A stretch of 64,000 bases of DNA from Eledone cirrhosa (taxonomy: Eukaryota), in contig OZ024741.1 in assembly GCA_964016885.1 (NCBI GenBank), positions 18,972,001 to 19,036,000 on the forward strand. The letters are read 5' to 3'. The stretch's first letter is position 1, and each line of letters begins with the position of its first letter. Under the pieces are notes generated by a model. That model made no database searches and had not been told where the DNA came from. It saw nothing but the letters and a program-made list of their open reading frames with translations. A program made the position numbers and the translations under genes. Shown piece after piece: positions 53,642 to 63,602 of the stretch.

Positions 53642-55578
53642 GATAATAATAATAATGATAATAATAATAATAATGAAATATTGTGTACAGTGCTCAGGTG
53701 CACTACAACTCATCCAAAAGTGTATGTATAGTACATAGGGTAATGTACAAACGTCAGGAAAATGAACAGTGCATGAATCATGATATACACGTGTGCATGT
53801 GTATGGAAGGGGTACATCAGGTATAGTTTTGGCGTATTTCGGGAAGCATGAGGGTTTTAAAGGATGCAGTGTCTCGGCAGCTAACAACTGACGCAGGCAG
53901 TTTGTTCCATGCTTCAGCAACTCTGAACGTGAAAAAATGTTTACGAAAGTCATGGGAGCTGTGCTGTTTTCTGATTTTGTAGGCATGTCCACGTGTGTTA
54001 GACACATGAAGATCAAAAAAGTGCTCAGGGTTGTTGTTGGCGAGATGGTTAATAACTTTGTGGGTGTTTACCAAGTCCATTGCCAGACGTCGGAGCTTCA
54101 ATGAATCCATGCCCAGGGAAGCAAGGCATTCAGAGTATGGTAGGTGTCTGATGGAGGGTATGCGCTTGGTTGCACGTCTCTGAACAGTTTCCAGGAGGTC
54201 AATGTTCTGGGGTTCGAGACTGATGATGCGAGTTCCAAGTGTGGTCGTACCATAGCTGTATACAGCTTTAAATAGATGGCTGGAGAGCGGCTAACAAAGG
54301 TCTTGCTGAGTGATGCCAAGACACCCTCGGCCTTCTTGACAATCTTAGAGACATGCTTTGTCCAATGCAAATCGCTGCTGACAGTAATGCCCAGGTCACG
54401 TTCACAAGAGGACTTCTTGATATCACTGTTGTGGAGGGAGTATGTGGACGCTGGATTTTTCCTCCCAAAATGCATGGTGGTACACTTGTCCACAGCCAGC
54501 TTCAGTTGCCAGTCTGTGATCCATTGCTGCATTGTGTCCAGGTCTGATTGTAGGAAAGAGTTGTAGATTTCAGGATCAGTCCTTTTGATTTCAAAGTACA
54601 GCTTGATGTCATCTGCATATTTCAGTACCGTGGCATTCTTTAAGTTGGCATCTATGTCATTAATATATGCCACAAACAAAAGGGGACCAAGAACAGATCC
54701 CTGTCGTATACCAGATGACATCTCATATGGAGAAGAATGCTGTCCTAGAACCGTGACTACCTCTTTTTGGCTGAGAATGAAGGATTTCAACCAGTTAAAA
54801 AGATCATACTCATTGCAGAGAGTTTTGCCATAAGTCTTTTGTGTGGCACAGAATTAAAGCCTTAGCAAAGTCAAGGTAAACAACGTCCACCCATGAGCTG
54901 CTGTCGGTGATCCGGGTAATGTCTTCAAGGATCTCGATAAGCTGATCACAGCAGCTGGAGTTAGGGATAAATCTAAACTGTGAGGGCCGGATGAGGCTGT
55001 GAGAGCTCCAGAAGTTCCAAAGTGTTTCTCTGACACAGGATTCCATCAGTTTGGCCATACAGCTAGTAAGACTGACTGGACGATAGTTGACAGGTGACAT
55101 GCGGTCGCCCTTTTTGAACAGGGGAATGACACTGGCAGTTTTCCACTACTCCGGAGTAGCACCATTGTTGAGACAGTATTGAAAGAAGAAAGAAAGCTGG
55201 TGCAAAAGGAAGTACCCGCCACGTTTGAGAAGTAGGTATGTAACACCATCAAGACCAGGGGAGGCATAGTTGCGCTTATTCTTAAGGTGACGTCACAACA
55301 TTGCAGGTGTAAATTCCATAGTTGTTATGGAATTTGATGTTAGAGATGGTGGAGATGGTACATTCTGGTTTTCAACAGTAAAAATACTTGCATAGCACTC
55401 AGCAATGAGTTCTGCGCATTCTTTGGGATCGTCAGTGATCTGGCTTGTGTGGGGATTGCGAAGAGGACCAACTGGAGAGTGAGGTCTCTGCTTTGAATGA
55501 ACATATTTCCAGAACACCTTACTGTCAGGATTGGTTGCTATGCACTGTTCAAATTCAAGCACTGCCTTCTTTGTCACT
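53642..55578 (-). mobile_element. 5'-truncated CR1-type LINE with frameshifted RT
   Basis: NYRPVSLTS, YLDFAKA, GIRQGSVLGPLLF, YADD, RPHLE and NTRGH..K....R..FF..RV...WN.LP in consecutive ORFs; (TAT)n tail. Confidence 0.93.
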
Positions 55579-55731
55579 ATGATGATGATGATAACAAGGG
55601 GCTGTGGATTCAAGTGGGTGGCTGGTATGGAAAAGGTTAAAAGATCTTGTTGAGTTTTAAATTAAAGAAATATAAGAAAGTAAACTGATTTCTCTGAATT
55701 GATCTGGAAATTATTGTAATTTATTTTATAG

Positions 55732-61437: not shown

Positions 61438-61675
61438 AAAAGTGGACATAAAATGATGATGATATATATTAAGTATAACCGAATTGCAGCTGCGAGTAGC
61501 AGATTCACATTCGATTTTCAGAGGCTGTCACAAAGCACTCAATGAGAGAGTAATCAATAAATCACTCCTCAGAGTAATCACAATAAGTTAGGTAATAGTG
61601 ACACAATGAATAACGTGACCAGAGGCGTGTTGTCACCTTAATACTATAACGAAAAATACAGACAGGTTAAAGATG

Positions 61676-61798
61676 GACCTGGACCTGCTCGATAGGTTTC
61701 TGGAAAATCCCAGAAGTTACATTCCAAGTTGCATAATATATATGCAAGTCAGTAATGTATCCTAAGATGGAACAGGGATTTTCCTTCATCAGCAGGTC
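61676..61798 (-). ncRNA. Type I hammerhead ribozyme with intact core and long branched stem II
   Basis: Minus strand: GACCUG-CUGAUGA-A-GGAAAAUCCC...GGGAUUUUCC-A-GAAA-CCU-aucgagc-AGG-UC|CAGGUC; 6-bp stem I, 10-bp stem II, 4-bp stem III, GUC triplet. Confidence 0.85.
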
Positions 61799-62216
61799 TT
61801 TTGTTCCAGTATCCACTTTCCACGGGTTATGAGATAACATTGCCTTTCAACTGTAGTAGTAAATTTGGCAGTGAGGTTACATGTTCTTTCTCAAAAAAAA
61901 GAGGAAAGTCACATCCGGGTTAAGGCTAGTACATTCAAAAGTGTAAAAATTTATTCACAGCCTTGAAGTAAGCTTTCAACTAGGTTTTCAAACAAACAAT
62001 TAACCCCCCATATATATATATATATATATTAGGTATAGGATTATCGTAGATGCAGTAATGGTTAATTACTACACTGGATAGAGTTGACGTACGGTGAGAG
62101 GTTACTCAACGAGTTATGGAAGAATTGTTGAAGAAACTTAGTTCCTGATCCTTCTGTATTCCGGAGTGTAGATAAAGAATGAATAATAACAGGTAGACAT
62201 CATAAAAAGGTAATTT

Positions 62217-62340
62217 ATTCCGTGGGCTTACAAATGTTTCCACGGTGGTTATACAGCCTAGTTATGCTATGTGCAAATCTATAACTATTTGCAGAACTCA
62301 ATTATCAAATGTTGTGACCACTGTATCATCAGAGCAGAAT
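62217..62340 (-). ncRNA. Type I hammerhead motif, left-arm copy
   Basis: Reverse complement of 63403-63526 (tcatcag at 62326-62332). Confidence 0.65.
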
Positions 62341-63402
62341 GGTTAAAATGTACAATGTAAATACCCTTAAGTGAGGTTATTGGTGAAGATAGAGTAGAAT
62401 AGGAAGAGAGAAAAGAAGGGGAGAGGAAGAGAGAGAGAAAGATATGCAGGGGTTGGAGAAATGGGAGAGAGCGGTTTGTAGATATCTTAATCAAAATGTT
62501 GTGGTAGGGGTTTTATTATACTGGTTACTCTCAAAGCGACCACCTTAAGCGATGCGTTGATAGTGAAGGTTGGAATTATTTATTGCCCCAGAGGGCAGGT
62601 TCATAGATGTGGGGAGGGAGGTAGGCCTAGGGCGAGAGAGAGAGAGAGAGAGTGGAATGGATAGAGAGGGAGTGATAGAGAGGGGACAGACGAAAACTAT
62701 GGGGTGGGTGAACATTGGATTCATAGTAGTAATTTACGAATTGCACTAAGTTCCTATTTATAGTGATAAGCAGGGTATTGTCTTGTAGTGTAAGGGAAGA
62801 GAAAGTGGTTAGATAGAAAGCAATGTTATAGTTACGGGTTCGAATGTTAAGTTATTTTATAGTGAGAGAATTTAGCTTTCAGTTTGTGGTTGCAGTACAA
62901 TGATCGTAACATTCAAACCCGTAACTATAGCATTGCTTTCTAGCTAACCACTTTCTCTTCCCCCACACTACAAGACAATACCCTGCTTATCACTATAAAT
63001 AGGAACTTAGTGCAATTCGTAGATTACTACTATGAACCCAATGTTCACCCACCCCATAGTTTTCGTCTGTCCCCTCTCTATCACTCCCTCTCTATCCATT
63101 CCACTCCCTCTCTCGCCCTAGGCCTACCTCCCTCTCCACATCTATGAACCTGCCCTCTGGGGCAATAAATAATTCCAACCTTGACTATCAACGCTTAAGG
63201 TGGTCGCTTTGAGAGTAACCAGTATAATAAAACCCCTACCACAACATTTTGATTAAGATATCTACAAACCGCTCTCTCCCATTTCTCCAACCCCTGCATA
63301 TCTCTCTCTGTCTCTCCATCTCCTCTTCTTTTCTCTCTTCCTATTCTACTCTATCTTCACCAATAACCTCACTTAAGGGTATTTACATTGTACATTTTAA
63401 CC

Positions 63403-63526
63403 ATTCTGCTCTGATGATACAGTGGTCACAGCATTTGATATTTGAGTTTTGCAAATAGTTATAAATTTGCACATAGCATAACTAGGCTGTATAACCACCG
63501 TGGAAACATTTGTAAGCCCACGGAAT
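63403..63526 (+). ncRNA. Type I hammerhead motif with extended stem II, right-arm copy
   Basis: GCU-CUGAUGA (63411-63417)-UACAGUGGU...ACCACCGUG-GAAA (63503-63506)-CAUUUG-UA-AGC; internal hairpin UGCAAAU/AUUUGCA; distal stem I AUUCU/GGAAU. Confidence 0.68.
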
Positions 63527-63602
63527 AAATTACCTTTTTATGATGTCTACCTGTTATTATTCATTCTTTATATATATATATATATGTATATATATATGTG
63601 TA

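Follow-up and report, generated by a model that had tools for sequence, protein, structure and literature searches.

A variant type I hammerhead motif in a dispersed ~620-nt non-coding element of Eledone cirrhosa, likely spread by Penelope-like elements

A hammerhead ribozyme motif was characterized on the minus strand of a 64,000-nt stretch of Eledone cirrhosa DNA (hereafter the window; genome size 3.0 Gb). As proposed in a first-pass annotation made from the sequence alone, it lies antisense to a myosin, within an intron of a myosin V gene. The gene was assigned from IQ motifs upstream, further coiled-coil exons 5–6 kb past the window end, which we take to be myosin V-like, and a DIL domain ~160 kb downstream on the same strand as the myosin exons. 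Another intron of this gene carries a broken LINE reverse transcriptase (RVT_1; 54098–55661, minus strand). Positions 62040–63560 are occupied by a very high-copy repeat, with a contig depth thousands of times that of the unique flank and with tandem and inverted pieces in a layout resembling Penelope-like elements (PLEs); this repeat is unrelated to the hammerhead.

The hammerhead forms part of a copy of a non-autonomous ~620-nt repeat family. This copy spans 61469–62003 (minus strand), with ~60 nt missing from the start of the unit and 35 nt missing from stem III. The element had been described as bounded by (TA)n at 61470–62010. On the 5' side this was borne out, since six G followed by a (TA)n run, the likely target, adjoin the element directly (62004–62031). 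The 3' side has only a short TA run, at the fixed end of the family (61461–61472), and the span is corrected to ~62003–61469. Over the ribozyme region this copy diverges by ~9% from the column majority of the family.

All parts of the hammerhead were found where they had been placed, at 61676–61798. Along the minus strand they are the 5' strand of stem I (61793–61798), core nucleotides 3–9, CUGAUGA (61786–61792), a domain II of 85 nt (61701–61785), core nucleotides G12–A15.1, GAAA (61697–61700), a shortened stem III (CCU/AGG) with a 7-nt loop (61683–61696) and the 3' strand of stem I (61676–61681). Domain II opens with an A.A apposition (A10.1 at 61785, A11.1 at 61701), followed by a 10-bp proximal helix (61784–61775 with 61711–61702) and the two distal helices reported earlier, UACAUU/AAUGUA and UUGCAUA/UAUGCAA, both of which are present in the MFE structure. 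Cleavage is predicted after C17 of a GUC triplet, between 61682 and 61681, the latter being position +1. A conserved hexamer at 61663–61668 can pair with the 3' strand of stem I, in competition with stem I; with this pairing the 3' cleavage product would begin in a hairpin.

The type I features are present, namely three helices around the core, an open stem I and an NUH site, and the window copy has the full canonical core (C3–G8 or U3–A8, U4 G5 A6 A9, G12 A13 A14, A15.1–U16.1), here with C3–G8; most family copies have a U3.G8 wobble at that pair. The purine–pyrimidine pair at 10.1/11.1 is absent and A.A takes its place. The motif was the sole match of the full structural descriptor in the 64,000-nt window, where no other CUGANGA...GAAA match passed it, and none of 20 Markov-simulated windows gave a match as strict. 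Since the fold also scored z = −4.9 to −5.4 and hundreds of genomic copies exist, the motif is not a chance match. Rfam returned no hammerhead at the gathering threshold or at E up to 10, in keeping with the earlier suspicion that standard searches could miss it.

A DNA search of the genome gave 734 first-look candidates, 40 of which were scored and were 73–90% identical. The family unit is ~620 nt and has no ORF; its start is preceded by TA repeat or, alternatively, by another unit's 3' end. Copies are dispersed and their 5' ends vary. Among 48 copies retrieved with an internal anchor, 35 shared a 3' end with (TTA) or (TA) repeats after it and four ended at a second site near position 515; five carried an inverted 5' piece, two were partial tandems, and one (L140) had a 30–40-nt 3' extension or tail. 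Pairwise identity over the ribozyme is ~83%, which makes the family an old one. A metagenome scan for the core motif gave no matches. In 4 of 30 loci (L007, L010, L026 and L030) the element and a LINE, presumably of the REL-endonuclease, Dong/R4-like type, meet tail-to-tail, with the LINE's (TAA)n end facing the element. That the element is part of such a LINE was ruled out, because the junctions differ and both use (TAA)n.

Core positions were counted in 56 complete copies. The A.A apposition was found in 51, GAAA in 50 and GUC in 45. Positions 3/8 were U.G in 34 copies, U–A in 14 and C–G in two, U3 occurring in 49 overall; nine copies share the core of a U3–A8 subfamily. Stem III is normally lengthened by a hairpin of 30–40 nt. 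Absence of the core from other copies had been named as grounds for rejecting the ribozyme, and a cleavage-compatible core was kept in 42 of the 56. On this comparison, A.A and the ~85-nt domain II, both singled out previously as unusual, are family traits of a genuine type I hammerhead and represent the family design. The canonical C3 and the 7-nt loop 3 are private to the window copy, in which 35 nt have been deleted between two short direct repeats; a further private change, T to G, lies inside its shortened stem III at 61688 (minus strand).

Three copies (L289–L291) belong to an older sister subfamily, ~70% identical, with C3 and C4 in the two of three in which the core is present. In this subfamily the 3' strand of stem III differs and has no first CAGG, and the distal helix of domain II is altered. 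A ~190-nt SINE-like repeat, in one orientation, interrupts the TATATA of loop 3 in 16 copies (among them L102, L096, L106, L109, L242, L267, L280 and L288), which apparently belong mostly to the U3–A8 subfamily. The alignment of genomic copies recommended in the first-pass annotation could be made with 42 copies, but the covariation sought did not emerge above shuffles, as expected for neutrally decayed copies. Helix cells were paired in 88% of cases against 25–46% for slid controls, yet not above shuffles. One U–A/C–G change between the main group and the three older sister copies was seen by eye, and RNAalifold on the decayed copies returned an empty consensus.

Folding was predicted in two dimensions, leaving tertiary contacts and proteins out of account. 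In the window copy the hammerhead fold lay 7.2–11.2 kcal/mol above the ensemble at five fragment lengths, and the predicted fold was a non-ribozyme rod covering the cut site. The 5' strand of stem I is predicted to pair instead with 61682–61689 (AGCAGGUC), in a rival helix that includes the first CAGG before the site and has a probability of ~1.0; stem III is worth only −1.4 kcal/mol. The weak stem III and the pairing of the 5' strand over the cut site both follow from the 35-nt deletion that left the 7-nt loop 3. In the least-diverged copies the 5' strand prefers the true stem I once +6 has been made (6 of 8), and in one natural copy, L030, the hammerhead is the MFE structure (z −3.3). The window copy had been put forward as the best candidate for an active monomeric ribozyme. 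Its weak stem III, its mispaired 5' strand and the private nature of its C3 and 7-nt loop speak against this choice, and we consider it quite probable from the models that it does not cleave as a monomer. Rescue by dimerization also seems unlikely, as there is no neighbouring second ribozyme and loop 3 complementarity is poor. Dimeric PLE hammerheads are reportedly the subject of a paper by Lunse et al. By the same models, better candidates are less diverged copies with a long stem III (L030, L115, L090, L042 and L255).

Could the window copy nevertheless be an active monomer that cuts antisense transcripts within the myosin V intron, its private changes having restored C3–G8, a terminal G–C pair in stem I and a fully paired, perfect stem II? 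It is the sole copy of 56 with CUGAUGA, stem II shows a double change from G–C to A–U, and its domain II is the most stable of all 56 (−30.8 kcal/mol, the next being −26.4), a stability reached in ≤0.2% of decays simulated from the four least-diverged copies. This reading is nonetheless improbable. Apart from the folding energies given above, the rival helix would form before the 3' strand of stem I is made, and C3 itself pairs in that helix with the private G at 61688. A T-to-C rate of 3% per site predicts about two C3 copies among 56, and three were seen; moreover, the window copy was chosen for its canonical look. Less probable still is that it is no longer a ribozyme and has become a perfected hairpin of ~117 nt on both strands, shaped by template switching in replication or by selection as intronic dsRNA in the myosin V pre-mRNA. 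Most of its non-CpG private changes improve rod pairing, folding of the plus strand is almost as good (−41.4 kcal/mol, z −4.7), and the copy is an outlier among the 56. All this comes from one locus, found by looking across hundreds of copies, and the simulation began from copies already decayed. The outlying stability may reflect chance combined with the reader's selection, palindrome correction or selection.

Autonomous PLEs are abundant in the genome, in which 10597 GIY-YIG candidates were found, and both Neptune-like and Hydra-like PLE ORFs are present. A scan of 20 PLE loci revealed other hammerheads with symmetric non-pairs at 10.1/11.1. A.A came with an 89-nt domain II or with a short stem II; U.U came with a 50-nt domain II or in a tandem array. 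The A.A hammerhead with the 89-nt domain II lies in the 3' repeat (pLTR) of a young autonomous PLE that encodes a reverse transcriptase (RT), a CxCx5C linker and GIY-YIG. This element is probably active. Its best 40 matches are ~100% identical and at least 2914 exact matches exist. Its sequence fits the definition of the Hydra clade. Its hammerhead combines a canonical core with A.A and a rod-like 89-nt domain II, and its 3' repeats often occur as inverted pairs (L226–L228 and L188–L207; for example G000:C3:108574500-108583000). The same short T-rich motif stands right after the 3' end of the young PLE and of the ~620-nt element. No significant homology was found between the ~620-nt element and autonomous PLE loci (best E 0.08) in sets of 20 loci, 20 loci (3 overlapping) and 5 loci, a small sample of PLE families.

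In the ~620-nt family, the position of 5' ends relative to the predicted cut was assessed in all 85 exact matches to +1..+17; one (L262) was a chance match and was dropped, leaving 84. Five of the 84 copies start at exactly +1, as compared with 0.22–0.27 expected (P = 3e-6 to 9e-6). This result depends on the removal of 16 SINE-interrupted copies and one chance match and on one hand-corrected end (L239); with the SINE cases left in, P rises to between 2e-4 and 1.4e-3. After SINE removal there were 23 true 5' ends within 100 nt, including the five at +1, and no other position from −1 to −100 held more than two. An apparent truncation hotspot at −20/−27 was an artefact of the SINE in loop 3, upstream of which the element continues in 16 loci (apparent ends −7 to −39). 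In a second sample, anchored at +77, three of 48 copies start at +1 and one at +2, two of the three +1 copies being shared with the first set. Three copies of this sample also start at the anchor edge (+77), and piles can thus arise otherwise. Among loci found with a 3'-end query, a biased sample, 6 of 30 begin at +1.

Overall, 11 distinct loci start at +1, and at 10 of them TT stands just upstream, not the element's own TC. Eight of the 11 have an upstream direct repeat of +9..+26, although six of these came from a search that required it; the proportion in the unbiased set is 2/5. In the eight (L033, L047, L051, L054, L159, L161, L163 and L165), the repeat of ~+9..+26 has one common end point, where a T5 run starts. 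It may have originated by an RT jump to an RNA ending there, or by repair synthesis; snap-back self-priming is ruled out, as it would give an inverted and not a direct repeat. Three further hits of the direct-repeat search (L162, L164 and L167) were chance matches. A loose contig end with the +1 junction was recovered at the predicted place in one (X2) of three DNA runs, which come from one sample, maybe the assembly source, and are not independent.

The excess at +1 is likely a genomic footprint of cleavage in vivo. The simplest reading of these starts is that RT ran off where the ribozyme had made a 5' end and that a short jump or repair came next. Most copies (79/84) pass through the cut site, which indicates that most templates were uncut or religated, as for the PAc element discussed below. 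Cleavage of the family at a low rate is, in our judgement, distinctly probable. The footprint is not general, since starts at the predicted cut numbered none among the first 100 listed of 2914 matches of the young PLE and none of 16 in the short A.A family.

That absence, together with the many copies that run through the site and the variation of core positions 3/4/8 by subfamily (U3.G8, U3–A8, and C3 with C4 in the older sister group), as under relaxed selection, would suit a hammerhead already vestigial in the family master, the +1 ends then arising from RT stalling at the 3' hairpin or stem III, from transcription start or from nuclease trimming. We think this unlikely, for the pile falls on a single base that had been predicted beforehand, it shows no TA microhomology and has TT upstream in place of the element's TC, and stalling at a helix would be expected to stop RT at −3 or at that helix's 3' foot (+7 or +19) rather than at +1. 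The copies are also circular permutations of the unit with an intact ribozyme in the middle, accompanied by partial tandems. This is what a classical circular-RNA retrozyme would leave, in which a circle of ~620 nt arises by double cleavage and ligation and RT copies it through more than one round; the model was proposed in PMC4209133 and shown for coral, mussel and axolotl in PMC7229834. Among the loci examined, however, none holds two full ribozyme-bearing units, only partial tandems being seen, although a source array may exist. The unit exceeds the 170–400 nt reported in PMC7229834 and 10.64898/2026.07.22.740005, and a circle, having no 5' end, leaves the +1 starts unexplained, although both templates could coexist. 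A purely circular route therefore seems doubtful as well.

Published work helps to place the family. According to Craig et al. (2021; PMC8557442), Hydra clade PLEs have CxCX5C and (TA)n targets, and U.U stands at 10.1/11.1 in 14 of 26 rows; a U.U at the base of helix II is also given for an axolotl retrozyme family (PMC7229834; 10.64898/2026.07.22.740005). Given these published natural exceptions, A.A at 10.1/11.1 does not exclude membership of the type I class. The hammerheads in Hydra-clade pLTRs resemble the present one in being type I, in lying in sense near the 3' end, in their (TA)n targets, symmetric 10.1/11.1 non-pair and tandem or inverted insertions. They differ in having U.U rather than A.A (no A.A among the 26 rows tabulated in PMC8557442) and loops of ≤10 nt rather than a domain II of 80–90 nt, while the long stem III, the U3 cores and the lack of an ORF set the ~620-nt family apart. 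The min-HHRs of PLEs, as described by Cervera and De la Pena (2014; PMC4209133), share the PLE association, mostly solitary copies, a tendency to a long helix II and low expected activity, and include the U3–A8 variant as a natural covariation in Schistosoma. In contrast, they keep G10.1–C11.1 with an additional 5' base, and their helix III is minimal and they act as dimers, whereas the ~620-nt family has a long helix III, of the monomer type as in fungal and protist PLEs, and is mostly U3.G8. Both U3.G8 and A.A are expected to weaken catalysis (PMC3088659).

Animal retrozymes are PLE derivatives (PMC7229834; Li et al., 10.64898/2026.07.22.740005). Like the ~620-nt family, the metazoan non-LTR retrozymes of these papers are small non-coding units with a type I hammerhead, low GC, PLE dependence and many monomers. 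Their units are 170–400 nt, as against ~620 nt and no full tandem array among the loci examined here, and they have circular RNA (PMC7229834), while the ~620-nt family is known from genomic DNA. The Poseidon element PAc of Anolis (Frangieh et al., 2024; PMC11167929) shares an internal RT start that gives fixed 3' ends, an optional tail and an ATT-rich target. Its hammerhead cleaves only with protein and its dominant template is uncut RNA; no reads start or end at its cut site in the data described there, whereas genomic copies of the ~620-nt family do start at theirs. Searches of a largely open-access literature gave no account of the ~620-nt family or of A.A at 10.1/11.1. Nor did they turn up elements of this kind with an 80–90-nt domain II, or genomic copies whose 5' ends fall on the cut of a PLE hammerhead.

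The motif and the family are real, and they add a new variant to the PLE-associated type I hammerheads. The element bears the marks of a PLE derivative: its 3' end is fixed and its 5' end truncated, partial tandems and inverted 5' copies occur, there is a tail and a (TA)n or ATT-rich target, and the same genome has autonomous PLEs. The fixed 3' end, 5' truncation and tandem or inverted copies are features described for PLEs in PMC8557442. We infer a PLE partner, with no sequence match among the PLE loci examined. Our preferred reading, to which we give a probability of roughly 0.65, is that the window contains an old and likely inactive member of a non-coding ~620-nt family, that a PLE, probably one from the Hydra clade, likely spread this family, and that the family's variant hammerhead likely cleaved a minority of its RNAs. 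A PLE protein would nick (TA)n, and reverse transcription would begin at an internal (UUA) junction of a tandem transcript. Most templates would be uncut, giving copies that run through the ribozyme; on templates that had been cut, RT would reach the 5'-OH and run off, and the resulting copies would start at +1. By prediction, a long stem III keeps the first CAGG hidden and thereby permits folding of the ribozyme; the loss of 35 nt together with two point changes is predicted to lock the RNA of the window copy in the rod over the cut site.

Whether PLE hammerheads cut in vivo has been an open question, the only reconstituted PLE having neither needed cleavage nor yielded RNA reads that ended at the site (PMC11167929). 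Copies that start exactly at the cut offer DNA evidence for cleavage and a cheap assay for other families. A.A joined to a long domain II occurs both in a decayed family and in a young PLE present in thousands of copies, which broadens the hammerhead consensus. A caution also follows, in that the copy with the most canonical look probably does not represent the working form. More tentatively, and with the balance of probability somewhat against it, PLE hammerheads with A.A and an 80–90-nt domain II, missed by Rfam, might be active in vivo even with U3.G8 and gated by a built-in alternative pairing such that some transcripts are cut, the 5' ends of copies forming a genome-wide fossil record of PLE ribozyme cleavage that could be read for any family.

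Three more short elements, all non-coding and with a hammerhead, are candidate retrozyme families: a 459-bp tandem whose hammerhead has U.U and a 50-nt domain II (L169, at 6199 and 6658), a tandem array of ~490 bp with a U.U hammerhead (L179:7567-9052), and a solo element of ~330 bp with an A.A hammerhead (L185:3357). Neptune-like PLEs with open frames of 844–938 aa were present at L168, L169, L173, L177 and L180, and their terminal repeat carries a minimal hammerhead with a U3–A8 core.
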